IMG/VR virus record: IMGVR_UViG_3300027819_000006
DNA from: a virus
Taxonomy: Duplodnaviria > Caudoviricetes
Strand: one strand, 5' to 3'
DNA length: 64,000 nucleotides
This document shows positions 11,234-63,551 of the stretch, one piece after another. The notes beneath the pieces are model-generated. The model saw nothing but the letters and a program-made list of their open reading frames with translations. It was not told where the DNA came from and made no database searches. Each line of letters begins with the position of its first letter. Within the stretch, counting starts at the first letter, position 1. Made by a program: the position numbers and the translations under genes.

Positions 11234-12097
11234 TTAGCAAATTATACGCCAAACTATATCTATTTCGTCTTCCCAGATGCGAATTAGTCTATAACCATTA
11301 TCTTCAGCTATTCTATTTTTTCTATTATCATTATCAATCTTTCCCTTTTGCCATTCATTTACAGGTCCATTAACATATATTCTAGGATTACAGTGATAAT
11401 AGTTACCATCAACTTCTATTAACATGTTATATTCTGGAATATAAAAATCAAAATAAGATTTATTTAAATAAAACTGACTCTTATACTCTATATTTAAACT
11501 ATCTAAAATCTTAGCTATTTTTATTTCAGGTTTACTTATTCTATATTTAAGACATTTTTCATTTCTATTTTTATTTCTTGCAATCCACATTTCTTCTGCT
11601 TTTTCAAGACCATGTTTTTCTATCCATATATCTTTAAGTGATTTACCATACATGGGATTTTTGCTTCCAGAAACATCTGCATGATTTTCTGACATACTAA
11701 CAGTTGATTTTTTTATTCTTTCATCAGTTTCTTTAGTTAAGCCTTTATTCCATGTTATTATAGATCCTTGTTCAAGCCTTTCTATTCGTGTTTCAGATAT
11801 TTTATTACATGATTCGATAGAATGTTTTCTACCATACATGGGATTATTTTCACCCTTTGCTAAACCTTTTTCTATTCTAGTTTTAGATATTTTAGCTTTA
11901 GTTTCTTCAGATGCTTTTCTCCCTTTCAACTTTCCTGAATTTTTACATTTATGACATTTTCTATTCAGCCCAGTAACTTCGTTCAAGCAATTTGTCGCAG
12001 CACATTTATATTTGATATATTCTATGCATTCTTGACATATTCCAGATTTATTTCTATTGCCTAATTCATTAATACCACAAATATAGCATAATAGCAT
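11234..12097 (-). CDS. free-standing homing-type endonuclease: Zn-finger + NUMOD3 repeats + DUF559/Vsr-like nuclease
   Basis: CxxC pairs; SEETKAKIS and NPMYG repeats; C-term YFDFYIPEYNMLIEVDGNYYH...LIRIWEDEI. Confidence 0.8.
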   Translation of the reverse strand: MLLCYICGINELGNRNKSGICQECIEYIKYKCAATNCLNEVTGLNRKCHKCKNSGKLKGRKASEETKAKISKTRIEKGLAKGENNPMYGRKHSIESCNKISETRIERLEQGSIITWNKGLTKETDERIKKSTVSMSENHADVSGSKNPMYGKSLKDIWIEKHGLEKAEEMWIARNKNRNEKCLKYRISKPEIKIAKILDSLNIEYKSQFYLNKSYFDFYIPEYNMLIEVDGNYYHCNPRIYVNGPVNEWQKGKIDNDNRKNRIAEDNGYRLIRIWEDEIDIVWRIIC

Positions 12098-12114
12098 TAT
12101 ACATTCTCAAATAA

Positions 12115-12196
12115 AAAGACTTACAGTGTGGATAAGAAATAATAGCAAAGCTATTTTCACTGTAAGTCTTTGTAAACTACTATTATTTCTTATCCA
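12115..12196 (-). ncRNA. structured 5' leader with two interleaved perfect inverted repeats (14 bp and 17 bp)
   Basis: 12115-12128 pairs with 12158-12171; 12129-12145 pairs with 12180-12196; lies between a putative promoter and the endonuclease SD. Confidence 0.65.
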
Positions 12197-12207
12197 ATAA
12201 TAAATAT
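12197..12207 (-). promoter_or_regulatory. putative late promoter TATATTTATTA
   Basis: same motif recurs in intergenic gaps at 19259, 54766, 58535, 59411, 61075 and 63542, each upstream of a minus-strand gene. Confidence 0.55.
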
Positions 12208-12229
12208 ATTTGAGAAAATGCAAAATGCA

Positions 12230-15135: not shown

Positions 15136-15861
15136 CTAATCCTTTCTTGAAACTAATATGTTTAATTGTTTGTGAACCAATTCGTGTAGAAGATCTAATG
15201 ATTCTTTTTCTTCTACTTTCATTTCACTTAATATTTTTATAAAACTAACAGCAAAATTTTTAAACTTGTAGTCTTCAAAAAATTCTACTAGATATTCTTC
15301 TGGAATTTTATTTAGGATAGTAGAGGCAATATCTTCTTTACTGATTATCTTCACTATTTCTTTAATCTCATCTACTATTACAGCCTTATTCATGTCATCT
15401 AAATCTCTACCATCCAATAAAGAGTTTAATTCATCTACTACATTTTTAAACACTCTATATAGTTTTCTTTTATCTTTTACTATCCAGTTCTCATATTGCT
15501 CAGCATTACCAGTAAAAGAAACTATGTCATTCACATTAATATAGTGAGTACCATCAGATCTGCTTCTGATTTTGTTGACTAAATATGATTCTAGTAGATG
15601 TTTAACTTTCTTAAACATCTCTTCATCATGCATGAATTTGTTTCTTAGAGCCATCATGGACTCACTTACTACAAATTCATAGATGTTTTTAATTTTTTCT
15701 AATAGCTCTGATTTGCTACTTTCATCTGAAACTTTAGATGTTCTAATGTTGTTTTTGTCTTGAATATGCTTTTTAAATTTGTCAAAAACATCTTCTTTAT
15801 TGATTCTAAATAATATTTCTATAGGAGCTGTAGCTTTGTCTGCTGTTTCTTCTGACATCAA
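15136..15861 (-). CDS. hypothetical helical protein
   Basis: 241 aa ORF. Confidence 0.65.
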   Translation of the reverse strand: MMSEETADKATAPIEILFRINKEDVFDKFKKHIQDKNNIRTSKVSDESSKSELLEKIKNIYEFVVSESMMALRNKFMHDEEMFKKVKHLLESYLVNKIRSRSDGTHYINVNDIVSFTGNAEQYENWIVKDKRKLYRVFKNVVDELNSLLDGRDLDDMNKAVIVDEIKEIVKIISKEDIASTILNKIPEEYLVEFFEDYKFKNFAVSFIKILSEMKVEEKESLDLLHELVHKQLNILVSRKD

Positions 15862-17186
15862 ATTTCTCCAATTTTGTTACATTTTAGAGTATAAAGAACA
15901 AATTCATTTTCTAAAATATTTAATGATTCTTTTACTATATCAAATAGCAAATGATGCTCTTCTACAAAACAGTCTAATATAATAGAATCATGCTTTGTAG
16001 CTATTATTTTTGACTTCAAGTTGTTTCTAATAATGTTTGATTGAAAATTTGACACAAACTTTAAGAATATACATACTGCTTCATTCTGACAAAGATTATT
16101 AATGCTCTTGTCTTGAACATCTTCTAAACTGGTGTAAGATATGCTCTTTCCAGAAGAGCATACTATCTTCCTATTTTCTATACTCTTTATGTATTGTAAG
16201 ATTCTAAATTTTAATTCTTTAATTTCTTTAATAGTTTCTAATTCTTTATTTCTATTTTTGTAACCATAAAGAAATGGTATAATAGAATTTTTTAAATTAG
16301 TTCTATTCTTTTTTAGAATTTTAGAATAATAAGTATAAAAATCAGTTTCTAAAAGCTTGATTCTAAAGATTTTATATAGCGTCTTAATCTCAAAATTTGA
16401 AAAGTCAAGAGACACAATTATACCCTGATCATCAAATCTACTCACAATACATTTTTCATACTTCTTCTGAATTGTGTGAAAACTTGAAGATAACCTTCCA
16501 GTACTGGTTTTAGTAAGGCTATAACTTAAGTTAGCTATTTTACTATTCTCTATATAGTCATTGTAATAATTTTTTATGTGGCTATAAACATAGTTTGCAT
16601 GATTTATATCAATATTTATTTTATTTGTTTCTATAATAGAATATGTTATAGAAACTTCATGCAATAGTTTCGTAAATTCATTTTCTTTATAGTTATTCTC
16701 TATATAGTTCTTAAGTTTATTTAATACTACTGTCTCATCTATTAAACTTTTATTTAATAAATTTTCATTAAATATTTGATAAGGGACTATAGATAGATCA
16801 TAGCTTTTATTAACAAAGCTTTTCAGATCATTTCTATATTTTGTTCCAGTAATATTTCTGATCTCTTCATCATCTAGATCTAAATCTTTGTTCAGAATAT
16901 TGCTTAAAGCTATTCTGACATCAATAAATTTAGTATGATCTAATATTATATTTTGTTCAGCAAATGCTTTTGAAAATTCTTTTAAGTCATAAATGTATAA
17001 TCTATTCAACTTATGAATGTTTTCTGCTATCAGCTTTATATCTATACAATTTAGAACATAAATTTCATCATTGCTGCAAAAGCAGAATCTGACTAGTTTG
17101 TTGTCAGAACTGCTTTTGTAATTTATGATGCTGTCATCTTTGAAATTGCTGAAAAATATGTCTTCGTTTACATAGAACACTTTCAT
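15858..17186 (-). CDS. divergent family A DNA polymerase-like protein
   Basis: TSTGRLSS, SLDFSNFEIK (motif A), CQNEA, TKHDSI (motif C). Confidence 0.7.
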   Translation of the reverse strand: MKVFYVNEDIFFSNFKDDSIINYKSSSDNKLVRFCFCSNDEIYVLNCIDIKLIAENIHKLNRLYIYDLKEFSKAFAEQNIILDHTKFIDVRIALSNILNKDLDLDDEEIRNITGTKYRNDLKSFVNKSYDLSIVPYQIFNENLLNKSLIDETVVLNKLKNYIENNYKENEFTKLLHEVSITYSIIETNKINIDINHANYVYSHIKNYYNDYIENSKIANLSYSLTKTSTGRLSSSFHTIQKKYEKCIVSRFDDQGIIVSLDFSNFEIKTLYKIFRIKLLETDFYTYYSKILKKNRTNLKNSIIPFLYGYKNRNKELETIKEIKELKFRILQYIKSIENRKIVCSSGKSISYTSLEDVQDKSINNLCQNEAVCIFLKFVSNFQSNIIRNNLKSKIIATKHDSIILDCFVEEHHLLFDIVKESLNILENEFVLYTLKCNKIGEI

Positions 17187-17192
17187 GTAGAT

Positions 17193-18359
17193 CTATCCGA
17201 TCTTTATTGACTTAACGATATGCTGTCCAGGCAGAGAACATAAATAATTCTGCATTATTTCAGTAGCAGACAAACTTCTATTAAATATTCTAGTAAGCCC
17301 TATAACTCCTGTCAGTCCTGAATTAGACAAATCTAATGATTTACCAATCACCAATCTTGAATTTGCTATCAGTTGTGGAATTGATGTAAAAGCACTATAA
17401 GAAGCACATGCTCCATTTATATAGATTGTAGCACCAGAAAAACTTCCAGTACTTCCATCAAATGTAGCAGCAACATGATACCATTTGCCTAAAGCCAAAG
17501 GACCAGCAGTGAAACTATTAGTCCCTATGTTCAATTTTAATACACCTGAATCTTCTTTTAATCCCAAAGTTTCAGTAGCACCAGATCCTATAGACATTAT
17601 CTGGCTGTGACTGGTAGCAGCAAATTTCACAAAGCATAATACAGACATTCCTGATAATGCTGTGCTAACAGGATTGAATAAAGCTGATGACGCACTTTCC
17701 ATCCAAGATTTACCATCAAATCTAAATCCGCCATCACAAGGAGAATAAGTCCAACCTGTCACAGTAGCACTTAATCCATCTCCTGAAGCGCAACCTTTAA
17801 TACTAGCATTCAGAGAATTTCCTGATCTATCTGCTACAGCAGTTAAAGAAGTACTCAATTCTTGTCTGTTATATGTATAATATAATACAAGACTTGATCC
17901 AGTTACACCATTAGAGGGTAGTTGATCAATATTTGGTCTTATTCCTGTACCAAAATAATTTAGAAGACCTAGTCTCTGAAAACCACTTAGAGAAATATCT
18001 CCAAAATAAACTCCTAAATCGTTTATAATGACACTCAATTTATTATAATTAGACATAGCTGTACTGATAATATATTGAGTAGAGTCAGAAGTCATGCTTC
18101 CTTGCTGAGCTGTATGAGACTGACAATACAAAGCTTGAGAACCTGTAACTGAAGATAGACCGGCTGTAGTTCCAATAGTCAAATATAGAGTTCCGCTGCC
18201 ACCATCATTAGTATTGCTTCTGATTCTGCCTACAGAGATAAAATTATTTCCTGTAAGAGCATCAGATTGTACTAAATTGAATATAGGCTGCTCATTGAAA
18301 GATCCGGTATTACCAAGGAACTTTAGTTTTGTCTCAATAATGAAATTGTCAGTCTGCAT
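17193..18359 (-). CDS. virion structural protein with LamG/concanavalin-like domain
   Basis: S/T/G-rich; KWYHVAATFDG, IYING, RIFNRSLSATEI. Confidence 0.8.
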   Translation of the reverse strand: MQTDNFIIETKLKFLGNTGSFNEQPIFNLVQSDALTGNNFISVGRIRSNTNDGGSGTLYLTIGTTAGLSSVTGSQALYCQSHTAQQGSMTSDSTQYIISTAMSNYNKLSVIINDLGVYFGDISLSGFQRLGLLNYFGTGIRPNIDQLPSNGVTGSSLVLYYTYNRQELSTSLTAVADRSGNSLNASIKGCASGDGLSATVTGWTYSPCDGGFRFDGKSWMESASSALFNPVSTALSGMSVLCFVKFAATSHSQIMSIGSGATETLGLKEDSGVLKLNIGTNSFTAGPLALGKWYHVAATFDGSTGSFSGATIYINGACASYSAFTSIPQLIANSRLVIGKSLDLSNSGLTGVIGLTRIFNRSLSATEIMQNYLCSLPGQHIVKSIKIG

Positions 18360-19161
18360 TTATTTCACCATTATACCAAATTTCTATAAATTTACATTTA
18401 AGAAAATTTTTTATTTCATTTTTTCTTGTTTTATCTTTTTCAATTGCATATTCATGTCTTTTTTCATAGTATTCTATAACAATATTTTTTTCTTTATCAT
18501 ATCCATCTACAAAATATCCTAATTCTTTTATATGAAATTCTCCACCGTTCATTCCATGCTGAAAATTATAGTTATACTGCTTACCATATTCATCAATAAT
18601 TTCACAAGCTTTGGGACTGAATATAGGAAATACTTTACCTATTTTTTCTAAAAATGCTATAGCTTTTATTTTTTTTTTAATTTTAGTTTCGTCAGATTGT
18701 TTAAATTTCATTCCTTTGTTCCAAGCTATTTGTCCCTTATGAGCTTTACTATTTTTCAATCTGTGTTCTTTAGTTTGAACTCTGCCTGTCATAGCTTTCG
18801 ATCTTTTAATATTGGATTCTTCCGAATTCCAAACTTCATTATTATTTTTTCTACTTCTAATTCTTTTATTGTTTCTTTCTAAATCTTTTTTATAATTTTT
18901 CTTATTTCCTTCACTTATATTCTTTTTATGCTCTTCTGTTTGAGGACTCGATTTTCTTTTCTTACCTTATTGTCTACAACCATCTCTATTTCCTATTTTT
19001 GAACAACTTCTACATAATGTTGAAAAAACATTAATTGTATTGTTACACAAATCATTACTACATTTCTTTGTATTAATTCTATGTTTACCACAATACTCTA
19101 TACCCCTCTTTTCTGAATTTATATTTATTTTTTTATTACAATTTTCAGTTTTACATTTCAT
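18349..19161 (-). pseudogene. Zn-finger/NUMOD3/PD-(D/E)XK-type endonuclease with one in-frame TAA at 18967-18969
   Basis: track ORFs 18967-19161 and 18349-18792 are in the same frame with an open 58-codon linker (GKKRKSSPQTEEHKKNIS...); C-term YFVDGYDKEKNIVIEYYE. Confidence 0.75.
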
Positions 19162-19172
19162 GGTGTTTCTCT

Positions 19173-19260
19173 AAATTAAAATTGCTAAGTATTGGATCTT
19201 AAAAGACTATATGTCTAAAGATGCTTAGCAATTAGAATTTAAGTCTTTTAAGATCCAATA
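19173..19260 (-). ncRNA. second structured 5' leader with interleaved inverted repeats
   Basis: 19180-19189 pairs with 19224-19233 (extends to 19173/19240 with a 2x2 loop); 19190-19208 pairs with 19242-19260 (19 bp perfect). Confidence 0.65.
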
Positions 19261-19410
19261 ATAAATATAACTGAATATAAAAAAAACAAAATTGACACTA
19301 TTGAAGCTCCTTTATAGATATTTCTCAATAAATTCTCTACTGTTAAACCACTTTTCATGAAAATTGTTATTTTAGTAATCTGGATTATATCAAATTTAGA
19401 GAACCATTCC

Positions 19411-27715: not shown

Positions 27716-28813
27716 TTAACTTCCACTCGCAGAAACTGTTAGCTGAAAAACACCGCGGGCACCACTTTGCAGACCTACACAGTCTACTAAAACAGTTCCA
27801 GAATTTCCCAAAGCTGTTTTCATTTGAAATGTAGCTATACCTTGTGAATTTTGTTGTACTTTAGAATTCACCAGTGTTGCTATACTTGTATCTCTAGATA
27901 TTCCAGCATATCCAGACACATCTGTTCCATTTGTAGTTTCTACTGTAAAAGAGACTGTGTCTCCATATTTTACTGTAGCTATAGAGGGCTTTATAGATAA
28001 TACAGACACTTTTAGAGAACCTTTAGGCAAAGTTATCAGACGGTATCTTTGAGCTATGTCAGGATTTGATGTAGGCTCAAGAATAGGCAAATTCAGAATA
28101 TTTATGTCTGGATTCGATGGGTTGCTGACATCGTATAACTGATAATTTATTTCCACTTATTCTGGTTGTCACCAACCAGGTTAGACTATATCTTCATATT
28201 ATTACTTCTAATATGCTCTGCTTTTCGATCTATTTTATAAGATCTACTCTACTCTGTGAATATTTTATTATTCCATTTCGATAGTCGTTGAGCTGACTTC
28301 ATTTTACAGAAGATTAGTTGCTGGTTGACTCTAATTAAATATTTTTAAGCATTCACATTCATTATTTCTAATCATGTTGTAGCTATTTAATTTTAGCAAG
28401 CTATTCCAACAATTAACAGAGTTTATAGACGACTCAATAATTTATCTTACAGGATCGTCCCCGAACGAAAATTTTGTAATTTTAAAACTGCCATCGTTCT
28501 TGGCAAGCAATTCTCTTCCTTTGGTCGTTAAAATGCAATCTATGATCGCCGAATTGTTAACTTATAGTTATAATTCCTATAAGACCGGACTATTTCTTCA
28601 ACTGGTATATGTTTCAGTTGCTCGGGGCTTTATGAGATATTATTAGTAAGATTCTTCAATCTCTAGTCTCTGCACCTTTCTATATACTTATTATCTATTC
28701 TATAGAGTAGGCTCAAGATTGGCATTTCAGCTTTCCTTGAGTTTACCGAGTTTTTCATTATATATCGCTATATAAGCTACCTATGATCAAGTAGATGAAT
28801 CAAGATATGCCAC
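27716..28813 (-). CDS. conserved large-phage structural protein, 185 aa after splicing (exons 28813-28790, 28549-28454, 28153-27716)
   Basis: AAGGAG + GTG; spliced product MAYLDSST|AIIDCILTTKGRELLAKNDGSFKITKFSFGDD|EINYQLY matches the recalled MGYLDN..VDAILTKKGRELLA...DDEIDY family. Confidence 0.85.
28154..28453 (-). ncRNA. group I intron (300 nt, no ORF)
   Basis: exon ends U, P1 GACGAU/GUCGUC with U-G; P AATTGTTGGAA, Q AACCAGCA, R CTCAACGACTA, S AAGATATAGTCT; terminal G. Confidence 0.9.
28550..28789 (-). ncRNA. group I intron (240 nt, no ORF)
   Basis: P1 CUACU/GGUAG with U-G; P AAACTCAAGGAA, Q AATCTTGAGCC, R TGCAGAGACTA, S AAGAAATAGTCC; terminal G restores the frame. Confidence 0.88.
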
Positions 28814-29680
28814 TATTTATTCTCCTTTAAATTTAATTCTTTCTCATGTTTTTCTATATCTTTTAAAAACCAAACTTCTAATTCATAATTTAAATTTCTT
28901 ACAGCTTGCCATTTCAATTCATCAGTGCTTGTTTTGAAACCTTTAATTTCTAAATATTTAAATGAATTATCTATATTATTTTAAAATCGATACAGTATGA
29001 ATGATTTTTATCATCTTCTCCAACATATTGCACTCTGTCGTTAGTGTATTCCCAATCTTTAATAATACCTGCATCTTTCATTTTATCTAATATAAAGCAA
29101 GATCTATATTCATAGCTTCCTAAAACTTTTAAATTTTCATTATATTGTATCCATTTTGAAAAAGACTGTCCAGATGGATTTCTACCATTTATATAAGTAT
29201 TCTTTGCAGATTTCGACATCTTGTCTTTAGTTTTTTCAGTTTGTTTAAACCCTTTTCTATTCTTTTTGCTCTAATTTTATCTCTAGTTTCTTTAGAAACA
29301 GGTTTATTATATCGACCATTTTTATCACCTTCAGTTAAATAACCCTTATTATAATGGCCATTCTTACTTCTTGATACTAGATGACCCTTGCCATACATTC
29401 CATTTCTTTCACCTTGACTATGATATTTAGAAACACATTTTATGCTGCAAAACTCATGCTTTAAAGTATCTGTTGGCAAATGATAGCTATTTTCAAACCA
29501 ACTATTGCATTGTAAACATTTAGTGAAGCAGTTAAATACTATATTAGATAGCCAAAATTTACATTTTCTAGAGCAGCAATTTGATTTATAGATTACAGCA
29601 GAGTCATTTTTAACTTCTGTTTCAAACCACTGACAACATGCATCACATTTCTTACTACATGTATAATATTTTGCTTTCAT
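28813..29680 (-). pseudogene. free-standing Zn-finger/NUMOD3/TnsA-like endonuclease with two frameshifts
   Basis: track ORFs 29189-29695 and 28971-29219 joined by a shift near 29245; second shift near 28975 gives IDNSFKYLEIKGFK...KENK* whose TAG overlaps the GTG of the next gene. Confidence 0.75.
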
Positions 29681-36897: not shown

Positions 36898-38286
36898 CTA
36901 TTGCACAGAGAAAAACCATTTCTGTTTATTGGCATAGATATATGTAGATCCTTTTAATGACAGTTTTAACAAAATATAGTATTTCTTATTTGCATATAAG
37001 TCCTGACAGTTAAATTGTAGGAAATTTCCAACCTTATCGAATGATAAAGTGTCAGCTGGAATCTCCGTCGAATCTGTATCTAGCTCATGTAGCTCCCAGG
37101 TGCTATTTGTGGCAATAAAATTCTGTTGCGCTGTTGTAGCTCCAGTTGCAGCTACCAATGATACAGAGTTGTCTTTTATGTTTATTCTAATTCTTGGTTG
37201 TGAATTCTTGTCATAAACATTGCTCAAATTCTGCAATATAACTCTATAAGAAGAAGTCTGATAATTATCAAATCCAGAAGCTGGATTTATTGTTGTAAAT
37301 GAAAATGTATAATTTGCTGTAGGAGATGCAGAGATATACCAATTGTCTTTGAATGAAGTAGCAGCAAATGCATTTGAAGTCAGGGGCATTGTTCCAATAT
37401 TACACTGATAAATACCTTTAGACCATCTTTTAGCTGTCAAACTTGTTTTAATTGCAGAAACAGCATTGTTTGAAGATGAAGTTCCAGATAGAGTAATGTT
37501 TCCAGGGAAATCTCCAGATGCTACAGCATTCAAATCTGTTAGCTGCCCATTGACTATATTATAGAAAAATAGATTAGCTGTTGAATTAAATGCAACAAAA
37601 TTTCTGAAATCTTGTATTGCTCCAGGCCACTCTAGAGAAATAAATGGCCTATTCGTAGTGTTAGTCTGACGAGAATAAAATTTCTTTGTATAGTAACTGA
37701 ATGCTGATAAAGAGCCTGCTTTATTCTCTTCTGTATTAGACATTCTAATCATTAAGCCCTGATTGGCTGTTTGAGAGTTTGTCCATGCCTTAAAAATATT
37801 TGTAATGTTGATTCGGAGATTTTCTTCTCCCTGAGGGAAATATTGAGTAGCAGAATTTGCATCAATTACATAATCTCCACCAGAAGCATTCCAAGCAGTA
37901 GAATTTGTAGCAGACACAGCATTTGCAAAACCAGTTTGAGACATAGAATTGTTTTCTAACCCAGAAGATTCAGACCAATTACTAGTTACTGGATATACAT
38001 TTAAATTGAAATTAGAAGCTAATGGATCTCCATGTTTACAGTTGAAAAGATTTAAATATGCAGACACAGTAGTGTCAGTTATTATGTCGGGCAAATCTCT
38101 ATTTATAATATTAGCTGTGCATGAAGATATATTGAAAGATATTAATATTCTTGCCCAATTTTTAATGTTAGTATTATTATTGAACAATGTCCAAGTTTCT
38201 AATATGGGAGATGCTCCAAAATTAGAAGTTATGGATTTATCTGTTATAAAAGTGTCTTTATCTGACCAAGATCTAAACACGCTCAT
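36898..38286 (-). CDS. virion structural protein (DNRLRE-domain-like)
   Basis: DKDTFIT..SNFGASPILE, ARILISF, NQGLMIRM, YTKKFYSR, RPFISLEW. Confidence 0.7.
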   Translation of the reverse strand: MSVFRSWSDKDTFITDKSITSNFGASPILETWTLFNNNTNIKNWARILISFNISSCTANIINRDLPDIITDTTVSAYLNLFNCKHGDPLASNFNLNVYPVTSNWSESSGLENNSMSQTGFANAVSATNSTAWNASGGDYVIDANSATQYFPQGEENLRINITNIFKAWTNSQTANQGLMIRMSNTEENKAGSLSAFSYYTKKFYSRQTNTTNRPFISLEWPGAIQDFRNFVAFNSTANLFFYNIVNGQLTDLNAVASGDFPGNITLSGTSSSNNAVSAIKTSLTAKRWSKGIYQCNIGTMPLTSNAFAATSFKDNWYISASPTANYTFSFTTINPASGFDNYQTSSYRVILQNLSNVYDKNSQPRIRINIKDNSVSLVAATGATTAQQNFIATNSTWELHELDTDSTEIPADTLSFDKVGNFLQFNCQDLYANKKYYILLKLSLKGSTYIYANKQKWFFSVQ

Positions 38287-39516
38287 TTATTATCTCCATA
38301 ATTCATAACAAATTCTATGTTATTGTTTGAGCAATAAATCTTAGCAGCTTCTATTTTTAAATTTAACTTTTCCTGATCAAATATTCTGCCTTTTGTTTCT
38401 TCTAATACTATTTTATTTTTATATTGTATTAAAAAATCAGGTATATATCGTCTCAATCTGTCATATTCATATTTTATAACTATATGATGTTTTTTTGTCC
38501 ATTTTATAACATTCATATCTTTATCTAATTCTTTCATTCTTTGCAGCTCAAGTCCACTAGCATAAAATTCTTCTATTCCAGTTTTTATAGAAGTATAATA
38601 CCCTCTTTTAAAATATTTTACTCCATAATTTTCGCATCTATTTGCTGCAGCTATACTCATTTTTTGTTTTGTTTCTTCAGATATTATAAAATGTCTGCCA
38701 GTACTAATTTTAGACTGATGTTCACATTTGACTTTCCACATCTCTTCAGCTTTTTCAATTCCATATTTATCTATCCAAACAGATTTTACAGACACTCTAT
38801 ACATTGGATTACCAGAACCAGAAATCTTTTCAGAAATGTTTGCATTTCTTTCTGCCCACATTTCTTTGGCTATTTCAATACCGTATTCTTTTATCCAAAT
38901 ATCTTTTACTGAAACTCCATACATTGGATTCAAATCACCTACTCTATTTGACCCAAACATAGGATTGTTTTCTCCTGACATATTCTTTGAGCCAACTATT
39001 TTAAATTTATCGCTTAATATATCATTAACTGTTTTGCTATCTGGAAATTGTTTTCTATATTTTTCAGAACTAATATTATGTTTGGATTTTAAATGTACAC
39101 ACAAAGCTTCAAAATATCTGTGACATATTAAACATTCTATTTTATTTTCATCTGCATTAAAAGAATTGTCAATATAGATTTGTTTTTTTGATTTTGGTCT
39201 TTTATTTCGTATTTCTTGAATTTTTTCTTCGCTAAACATTTCTTTATATTTTTTATCTTTACTCCAAATAACTATCTCTTTATTTAAATGTCTTCTTTTT
39301 AAAGTTTCAGAAATGCGTCTTTTTCTACATACTAAACATCTTCTGTTTATATCTTTTGTAATATTAGAACAATCTTTTTCTATACAATAGAAAGTTTCAT
39401 TGTCTCTATGTTTAGAGCAAGTAGTATATCCTTTGTTTATAGTTTTTTCTCTTAATTTAGCTGCACAGTATTTACAATTCAAAACTATACCTCCATTTAT
39501 CTGCCCATGATCTAAA
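38257..39516. repeat. 21-bp imperfect direct repeat (38257-38277 and 39496-39516) flanking an endonuclease gene
   Basis: tttatctgaccaagatctaaa vs tttatctgcccatgatctaaa, 19/21 identical; encode FRSWSDK and FRSWADK. Confidence 0.75.
38283..39482 (-). CDS. free-standing Zn-finger/NUMOD3/TnsA-like endonuclease
   Basis: GGAGG + TTG start; CLICHRYF..HLKSKH, NPMYG repeats, YASGLE...RYIPDFLIQY..LEETKG. Confidence 0.8.
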   Translation of the reverse strand: MNCKYCAAKLREKTINKGYTTCSKHRDNETFYCIEKDCSNITKDINRRCLVCRKRRISETLKRRHLNKEIVIWSKDKKYKEMFSEEKIQEIRNKRPKSKKQIYIDNSFNADENKIECLICHRYFEALCVHLKSKHNISSEKYRKQFPDSKTVNDILSDKFKIVGSKNMSGENNPMFGSNRVGDLNPMYGVSVKDIWIKEYGIEIAKEMWAERNANISEKISGSGNPMYRVSVKSVWIDKYGIEKAEEMWKVKCEHQSKISTGRHFIISEETKQKMSIAAANRCENYGVKYFKRGYYTSIKTGIEEFYASGLELQRMKELDKDMNVIKWTKKHHIVIKYEYDRLRRYIPDFLIQYKNKIVLEETKGRIFDQEKLNLKIEAAKIYCSNNNIEFVMNYGDNK

Positions 39517-58602: not shown

Positions 58603-59376
58603 TTAAAAGTTGAGCAAAGCCTGGTCGTAGCGCAGCTGTATATCGACAGTCGCAGCTTCTGCAGTTGACATATCTAAGTCGCCGAATGCAGCATTTGTAA
58701 TCCATGCTCCTCTCATTTGCCATTTCTCTACTTCTGCTCCAACTGGATCATATAGAGACAGTTCAATAGTTTTCTTGTAGAATGCAGCATAACCAGCTCT
58801 ACCAGTGATAGTTTCAAAGCTTAGTCTGATCCATTCCATTACTTTTTGAGAAGCAGAAGGTGAAATTGGATCATATAGACCAATTGTAATTTGATCCCAT
58901 TCTGCTTTACCAGCAATATATCTTTTGCTGTTCAAGAAGTCTATTGTGATAGGTTCAATGTTGATTGTGGGTCTGGTTGCAGTTCTAGCTATATATGAAG
59001 GAATCATTTCTCCTCCACCTATATCAAAGCTGAACAGCCATCTATTTTTTCTTTTCAGTGATTATTATCTTGATAGCATTTAACTATCAATTCTAATAGT
59101 TTTTATTCCTATTAGCTTGGACTATATCATCAATTATACCAATTTATACATGTTTATACTAACAATGATGTATAAATTGTTATAAATGTTGGTCTTTCTT
59201 GGAAGTATTATTGCAACTTCTAGTCTCTGAACTTTCTACTTTGTGTGTAGCTTAGCTGCTGATTGCCATTTCTCAGGTTCCCAGCAATTTGACCAATTTA
59301 ACGAGTCCAATTAGAATTTAGGCTCGAATGCATCTGGCAGCATTTGTGCTACTGTCAGAGGTGATGGTAATGACAT
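58603..59376 (-). CDS. tail tube protein (gp19-like), 169 aa after splicing (exons 59376-59320, 59055-58603)
   Basis: spliced MSLPSPLTVAQMLPDAFEP|KRKNRWLFSF; WDQITIGLYDPI, GRAGYAAFYKK, EKWQMRGAW. Confidence 0.9.
59056..59319 (-). ncRNA. group I intron (264 nt, no ORF)
   Basis: exon ends U with U-G in P1; P AAATTGCTGGGAA, Q AATCAGCAG, R GTTCAGAGACTAG, S GATATAGTCC; terminal G. Confidence 0.92.
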
Positions 59377-63541: not shown

Positions 63542-63551
63542 AATAAATATA
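63542..63551 (-). promoter_or_regulatory. putative late promoter TATATTTATT for the sheath gene
   Basis: recurrent motif just downstream of the upstream gene's terminator. Confidence 0.55.

Follow-up and report, generated by a model that had tools for sequence, protein, structure and literature searches.

The leader of some 100 nt that precedes a nuclease-like gene at positions 19162-19270 of this phage DNA contains two interleaved inverted repeats. It raises the question of whether such a structure is a selected element, whether it acts as RNA or as DNA, and what it may do for the gene behind it. A preliminary description, based on two leaders of this kind, had proposed a selected, undescribed RNA/DNA element linked to nucleases. 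We followed up this proposal in a stretch of 64,000 nucleotides (hereafter the window), which is part of a contig of ~272 kb from an uncultured groundwater phage and is identical base for base in several samples; the phage was found in no RNA run. The phage carries T4-like genes (coding for Gp23, gp13, a baseplate protein, T4 RNA ligase and a gp55-like sigma fragment) and is rich in mobile elements, with three group I introns within the window. These introns score above the Rfam gathering threshold and are all on the minus strand (59093-59363, 28566-28800 and 28162-28479), two of them being adjacent in the gap 28157-28970. In a gene coding for 442 amino acids (15858-17186, minus strand), near both of the nuclease cassettes described below, the only match is to the C-terminal part of the family-A DNA polymerase domain, suggesting that the polymerase gene is split or fragmented.

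Structure of the two leaders of the window

The leaders and nuclease genes of the window are described here by their coordinates on the minus strand. The leader under study (copy 2, 19269-19162) comprises, in this order, a promoter-like motif, the arms b1, a1, b2 and a2, a U-rich tail and an SD-like GAGAA, followed by the ATG of the nuclease gene. The motif, TATATTTATTAT, consists of TATATTTAT followed by TAT (19258-19269) and is the start of a 17-nt common flank. Helix b is built from the 19-nt 5' arm b1 (19242-19260) and the 3' arm b2 (19190-19208), which pair perfectly (19/19). The 5' arm of helix a, a1, lies inside the loop of helix b, with a core at 19233-19224 and an A-rich extension to 19240. 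The 3' arm a2 has its core at 19189-19180, is extendable to 19173 and continues into the U-rich TTTTAATTT. The two cores pair at 10/10 positions, and helix a can be extended to about 17-21 nt at the cost of 2-3 mismatches (19241-19221 with 19192-19172). The linker from b1 to a1 is short, the spacer from a1 to b2 measures 15 nt, and b2 and a2 adjoin without a gap. The spacer and the 5' end of b2 also form a small hairpin, d (AGAC-ATATA-GTCT, 19204-19216), which is in competition with helix b and stacks within helix a; small hairpins of analogous position are present in most other copies. The SD-like sequence (GAGAA at 19171-19167, ahead of the ATG at 19161) is of the GAGA type that is typical of this phage, and AGAGAA together with the start codon (19159-19172) forms the 3' arm, c2, of a long-range pairing described further on. 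In copy 2, helix b is part of the minimum free energy (MFE) fold, with z = -5.5.

Copy 1 (12098-12216, or 12208-12098 from the motif on) has the same plan. It consists of an upstream arm c1 (12216-12207), the motif (12208-12197), b1 (12196-12180), b2 (12145-12129) and the c2/SD region (12113-12104), with helix a formed by a1 (12174-12158) and a2 (12128-12112), which a scan for perfect repeats delimited as 12171-12158 and 12128-12115. The order is again b1-a1-b2-a2, b2 and a2 again adjoin with a gap of 0, and the 17-mer flank is exact in both copies (12192-12208 and 19253-19269).

The gene behind copy 2 (18349-19161) codes for a nuclease-like protein with a Cys-rich N-terminus and a NUMOD3 motif, whose C-terminal domain has many relatives in IMG/VR. 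It is a single frame, open for 271 codons except for an in-frame TAA at codon 65 (18967-18969), and gene calls are split. The TAA sits in sequence that is identical to the window across every other contig aligned, and it could be the mark of a fresh pseudogene or a read-through site. Copy 1 precedes a Zn-finger/NUMOD3/Vsr-DUF559-like homing endonuclease gene (11234-12097).

In the Logan assembly of the source run, a break falls exactly within copy 2 (window 19193-19268). A third contig, of equal depth in the source sample, has the b arms of copy 2 and another a1, with a GCCAAG core like that of a copy found before a TnpB gene, and its sequence points to a further copy and to recombination among leader modules.

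Controls for chance and searches beyond the phage

When perfect interleaved repeats were searched for (b ≥ 10, a ≥ 8, gap ≤ 3), copies 1 and 2 were the only ones returned from the 64-kb window, both on the coding strand. With a score tolerant of mismatches the two window copies obtained 33.1 and 28.8, against a maximum of 22.8 in 18 dinucleotide shuffles of the strand, none of which attained 24. The interleaved plan that the preliminary description had placed at 19162-19270, and the matching plan and flank that it had seen in copy 1, are exact and exceed by far what chance would produce.

In place of a covariance model we used an explicit scan for two helices, because a covariance model cannot represent interleaved pairs and because MAFFT fails to register the unrelated stems (all seven copies then tabulated misalign, and an alignment of two copies puts helix a off by one). 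The expectation that further copies would turn up in phage genomes generally was not borne out in the other phages searched: 159 IMG/VR loci with relatives of the two window nucleases (934 kb, both strands) gave one match, inside an ORF; none of 61 IMG/VR occurrences of the 17-mer flank then shows the repeats; and INPHARED contains no near match to the leader. Rfam covariance models gave no match at either window leader and, at E<=5, chance matches only (mir-499, 19.9 bits, over copy 1), so that a group I intron or another known RNA was rejected as the identity of the leader. Nothing comparable to an interleaved two-helix leader was found in Rfam or in the searchable literature, and the word 'undescribed' holds within these sources. 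A comparison of empty and filled alleles had also been proposed for defining the ends of the element. There was no empty allele among the aligned contigs, which are all identical to the window, or among the contigs of the source run. The flanking proteins of this phage region have no relatives in the collections, and for this reason neither empty alleles nor population variation were found.

Further copies and their linkage to nuclease genes

Walking along the contig of the phage allowed us to cover ~142 kb, to which the same two-helix search was applied. Six further copies were found, for a total of eight, all on the coding strand. Copy 3 (L227:14243-14345) is followed by a NUMOD3 gene (180 aa), copy 4 (L227:18771-18898) by a gene coding for NUMOD3 and a PvuRts1I-like domain (430 aa), copy 5 (L228:17980-18089) by a frameshifted gene with a ROS/MucR-type Zn finger and NUMOD3 (L228:18108-18786) and copy 6 (L231:11784-11889) by a gene coding for NUMOD3 and a DUF1064-like domain (382 aa). 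Copy 7 (L231:15360-15446) precedes a TnpB gene (390 aa), and copy 8 (L232:12855-12954) a Zn-ribbon/NUMOD-like gene (251 aa) that is related to the others. All eight leaders are thus located directly 5' of nuclease-type genes, in which NUMOD3 occurs with Vsr-like, PvuRts1I-like or DUF1064-like domains, plus one TnpB, and no copy was found before any other kind of gene in the ~142 kb. With six more copies, a nuclease-type gene behind each of the eight and pairing kept throughout, the proposal of a selected element linked to nucleases is supported. The leader does not accompany every nuclease gene, since at least eight others of the same phage are without it. One of these genes, at 38283-39482 (minus strand), codes for a protein of 399 aa with a TnsA-like N-terminal endonuclease, a ROS/MucR Zn finger and NUMOD3, and has neither leader nor motif.

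The leaders of copy 2, whose gene carries a stop, and of copy 5, whose gene is frameshifted, may be relics or may serve downstream genes. The copy-5 cassette is located upstream of a carbamoyltransferase gene (L228:19034-20164). Just before the cassette, a 20-codon ORF (L228:17881-17943, MAKIVSLYGCCGF...) resembles the N-terminus of the carbamoyltransferase (MKILGLYGAVGF...) and, from this resemblance, appears to be a remnant or a duplicate of the gene end at the site of insertion.

Conserved and variable features

The motif is conserved, as is the order b1-a1-b2-a2 in all eight copies, and the junction between b2 and a2 measures 0, 0, 0, 0, 0, 1, 0 and 0 nt, respectively. A U-rich tail comes directly after a2 in 8/8 copies, being least U-rich in copy 8, and the SD follows at a distance of 0-8 nt. 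Arm b1 starts 12 nt after the start of the motif in five of the seven tabulated copies, 9 and 13 nt after it in the other two, and 11 nt after it in copy 8. The lengths of helix b (15-21), of helix a (10-22) and of the linker between b1 and a1 (1-26 nt) are variable, and no conserved loop nucleotides were found in the alignment of seven copies.

The stems themselves have an identity of 33-35% in pairwise comparisons between copies, which is random for this composition. The unrelated stems and independent pairing noted earlier in the two window leaders are thus a property of the whole set: all copies differ in stem sequence and yet pair. The stems of seven copies comprise 240 positions, of which 221 form Watson-Crick pairs, the remainder being 11 G.U, 1 A.C and 7 other mismatches; the count of G.U is inflated by the scoring of G.U as mildly positive during helix extension, and a hand tally of only those positions flanked by Watson-Crick pairs gave 7 G.U vs 1 A.C. 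Because of this asymmetry, together with the fixed orientation and the place between promoter motif and ribosome binding site (RBS), our comparison of the copies points to a leader that acts as sense-strand RNA, not as double-stranded DNA. The earlier designation as an RNA/DNA element can therefore be narrowed in the direction of RNA.

The promoter-like motif

The sequence TATATTTAT is the most intergenic-enriched 9-mer, with 13 of its 17 coding-strand occurrences in the 7.4% of the sequence that is intergenic. It is also present before ordinary genes, 20-45 nt ahead of start codons and often right after a terminator-like hairpin. Occurrences before ordinary genes that lack the two helices were seen in the window at 63551, 61084, 59420 and 58545 (minus strand), and also at about 3568 in L227 and about 5926 in L229. 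Judged by this distribution, TATATTTAT is probably a promoter of the phage's own, perhaps of a late type. A second 9-mer, TAGAATTGA, is likewise concentrated between genes (5/6 coding-strand occurrences; L227 about 2204, 3509 and 6069; window about 59095 and 21138, minus strand). Scans with sigma-70 and terminator consensus models were uninformative in this AT-rich DNA, and the terminator scan calls no helix a. Upstream of copy 2, a perfect extended -10 sequence (TGATATAAT) is present at 19392-19384 (minus strand), just 3' of the upstream arm of the long-range pairing; the other copies are without it.

The late promoter of T4, TATAAATA, is located at -13 to -6 (PMC1524935). If the same rule applied here, +1 would be motif position 14, the second base of b1, and the start of b1 would correspond to -1/+1. 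Position 14 is G in five of seven leaders. With such a start site, transcripts initiated within the cassette would carry helix b at their extreme 5' end.

Predicted folding of the leader

Helices a and b are predicted to be mutually exclusive, since with interleaved arms and a junction of 0-1 nt between b2 and a2 they cannot both form. A coaxial H-type pseudoknot would not reconcile them, because a link of 0-1 nt cannot cross the 15-21 bp of stem b. The two alternative folds, form B (b1:b2) and form A (a1:a2), are similar in predicted energy and there is no constant winner: the values for form B and form A, respectively, are -24.3 and -20.4 kcal/mol in copy 1, -30.2 and -16.2 in copy 2, -23.7 and -31.9 in copy 3, -24.3 and -24.0 in copy 4, and -21.9 and -25.4 in copy 5. 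In a modelled RNA that starts at the promoter and ends at a2, form B dominates in 4/7 copies (P >= 0.96) and leads in a fifth at 0.60.

According to folding, form B leaves the 12 nt located 5' of the SD more accessible than form A does in 6/7 copies. The possibility that form A hides the SD itself was rejected, as the accessibility of the SD has no consistent difference between A and B and only the 12 nt upstream differ. In the manner of an intrinsic terminator, a stem followed immediately by a U-tract was found in 8/8 copies. Textbook terminators also have a GC-rich stem and a short loop (about 3-8 nt), and these were not found: the stems are AU-rich, the hairpin of form A is long and irregular, and its loop measures 23-37 nt, contains b2 and is only partly closed by hairpin d. 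As for classical attenuators, no antiterminator was found that shares nucleotides with the 5' arm of the terminator; the arms do not overlap and the exclusion is topological.

A third pairing in read-through transcripts

RNAs that read through from upstream were modelled with starts 120-250 nt upstream. In the MFE fold of the long RNA of copy 2, an upstream arm, c1 (19393-19406, minus strand), pairs with the SD region (19406-19393 with 19177-19164, 13/14), the site being 215 nt upstream. In copies 1, 3, 5 and 7, folding pairs the SD/AUG of the read-through RNA with sequence just 5' of the motif or over it. This pairing of the SD is clear in copies 1, 3 and 5, marginal in copies 2, 6 and 7, and weak or absent in copy 4. 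By folding only, positions -13..+3 are less likely to be unpaired in read-through RNA than in RNA started at the promoter, in 6/7 copies. The same positions are also less accessible than with shuffled upstream sequence (p about 0.002, Fisher's method applied by hand to per-copy counts). An anti-antiterminator specific to read-through RNA was rejected, a shift to form A being seen in only 2-3/7 copies.

Proposed working and alternative explanations

We propose that the element belongs, as a 5' leader, to a portable cassette of promoter, leader and nuclease gene, and that it serves as an on/off device of sense-strand RNA which limits the timing and the amount of nuclease, a proposal to which we give about an even chance. 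Transcription from the cassette's own motif (TATATTTATwwT) would start at about the first base of b1, and the RNA would adopt one of two long hairpins, the interleaved arms and the linkerless b2/a2 junction excluding both at once. Form B, as a 5'-terminal hairpin, would fold first, since b2 exits the polymerase earlier than a2 does. In form B, a2 and the U-tract would remain single-stranded, so that polymerase and ribosomes could proceed and nuclease would be made. Form A, in which a1:a2 would stand on hairpin d and be followed by the U-tract at 0-8 nt from the SD, resembles an intrinsic terminator and would cover the ribosome landing zone; it would be the off state that caps nuclease output. 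In long transcripts from upstream genes, sequence 5' of the motif or over it would pair with the SD/AUG and no nuclease would be made, as in T4 I-TevI, segB and mobE.

An alternative that we regard as unlikely, although it deserves consideration, is that the two helices are separate devices packed into a small space, b being a 5' stabiliser or an RNase III-type site, and a with its U-tract a fixed weak terminator or a standby-site blocker. Such roles would suit a helix b that begins at the predicted +1 as a near-perfect duplex of 15-21 bp and a helix a with a U-rich tail behind it in every copy, and weak terminators in T4 mobE and segF reduce nuclease transcripts (PMC2988022). Separate devices need no interleaving, however, and the order b1-a1-b2-a2 with its junction of 0-1 nt was kept in 8/8 copies though the stems changed. 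Moreover, helix a would be unable to form while b stands, and the two would therefore be coupled, whether or not the coupling is used.

It appears quite improbable that both helices coexist side by side in a compact pseudoknot, for example as a 5' exonuclease-resistant cap or a platform for protein binding. The topology fits such a fold, the helices are similar in length, and crossover-like turns are possible where the linker from b1 to a1 is 1-2 nt, as in copies 1 to 3 when the extended a arm is counted. The length of stem b is an obstacle to a knot of the coaxial H-type, as mentioned above, and in the eight copies the lengths of the linkers (1-26 nt) and of helices b (15-21) and a (10-22) vary without consistent relation. 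The lack of conserved loop nucleotides is a further argument against a pseudoknot.

We consider it very improbable that the repeats act in DNA, either as hairpins or cruciforms that mark the end of the cassette (for recombination, template switching or nuclease recognition) or as by-products of quasi-palindrome correction. The stems are mostly perfect Watson-Crick duplexes, the element is found at the 5' boundary of mobile cassettes, and the additional source-sample contig with the b arms of copy 2 and a different a1 suggests recombination of modules. One copy precedes TnpB, and relatives of TnpB use DNA hairpins at the ends of their elements. Against an action in DNA, the ratio of G.U to A.C (11:1, or 7:1 for internal positions only) is strand-specific, although a hairpin in coding-strand DNA would show the same. 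All eight copies have one and the same orientation with respect to the gene, and the element, with its U-tract, occupies precisely the place between promoter motif and RBS. Finally, one architecture could not suffice for a set of unrelated nucleases to recognise stems of unrelated sequence.

Attenuation mediated by ribosomes, in which a short leader peptide translated across b1 would choose between forms A and B, is scarcely credible and was rejected. In copies 1-4 short ORFs do cross b1, with their stops in b1 or a1; two of these ORFs start at a TAATG overlap with the stop of the upstream gene, and copy 2 alone has AAGGAG-N8-GTG and a hydrophobic ORF of 16 codons that stops inside b1 (19298-19248, minus strand). 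However, in copy 5 b1 is crossed by no ORF that has a start codon, the frames, lengths and peptides are unrelated between copies, and the start codons are upstream of the promoter motif, so that the cassette's own transcripts would lack them.

More tentatively, the on/off leader proposed here could represent a new, portable class of cis-acting RNA switches, in which two hairpins would be exclusive through interleaving and a zero-nt junction instead of shared bases. Such switches would travel with unrelated nucleases (homing-endonuclease types and TnpB) and decide on transcription and translation of the nuclease gene according to the origin of the transcript or to a trans-acting signal; we think of this generalisation as possible rather than probable. 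Should the leader function in the manner proposed above, it would be a compact natural bistable RNA gate whose stems are free to take any sequence, homing endonucleases and TnpB would share a regulatory module, and the architecture would provide a sequence-independent signature for spotting mobile nuclease cassettes in metagenomes.

Comparison with known systems

Selfish nucleases need enough expression to spread, and not so much as to harm the carrier or upset its operons. The interleaved two-helix leader is most likely an elaboration of the known control of phage homing-endonuclease genes by RNA structure. In T-even phages and relatives, the genes of I-TevI, I-TevII/III, segB and Aeh1 mobE have a hairpin that sequesters the RBS, and a late promoter placed in such a way that late transcripts lose the 5' arm (PMC2988022). 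The present phage is itself T4-like (Gp23, gp13, baseplate protein and gp55-like sigma fragment), and here too a selfish nuclease gene is co-oriented within long transcription units. As in these systems, a promoter-like motif of the gene's own lies directly upstream, and only in read-through RNA is the SD/AUG predicted to be paired, with sequence 5' of the motif or over it. In contrast to T-even control, two extra interleaved and exclusive helices are found between promoter and RBS, and nothing of this kind has been described for the T4 genes. In addition, nuclease genes of at least four kinds, among them TnpB, have this leader in common, and its motif is TATATTTAT, whereas the late promoter of T4 is TATAAATA.

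Terminators in T4 mobE and segF lower nuclease transcripts (PMC2988022), and the stem and U-rich tail upstream of the ORF in 8/8 copies resemble these terminators as well as attenuators. The tails of the leaders are similar to the phage's own terminators, e.g. TTTTTATTT, and, as in attenuators, an alternative helix is predicted to block the terminator-like stem. Unlike in attenuators, terminator and antiterminator have no nucleotides in common: the loop of either helix contains an arm of the other, exclusion would come from the junction of 0-1 nt, and the loop of the terminator is long (23-37 nt). A further parallel is the gene seg43(25) of Aeromonas phage 25, which has a very stable hairpin of unknown function just upstream of the RBS (PMC2988022). 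Form A likewise would abut the RBS without covering it, but the hairpin of seg43(25) is single and has no interleaved partner. The answer of T4 is a single hairpin combined with a late promoter, whereas here a more elaborate modular device is apparently reused by many nuclease genes of one jumbo phage, including the gene of the RNA-guided TnpB.
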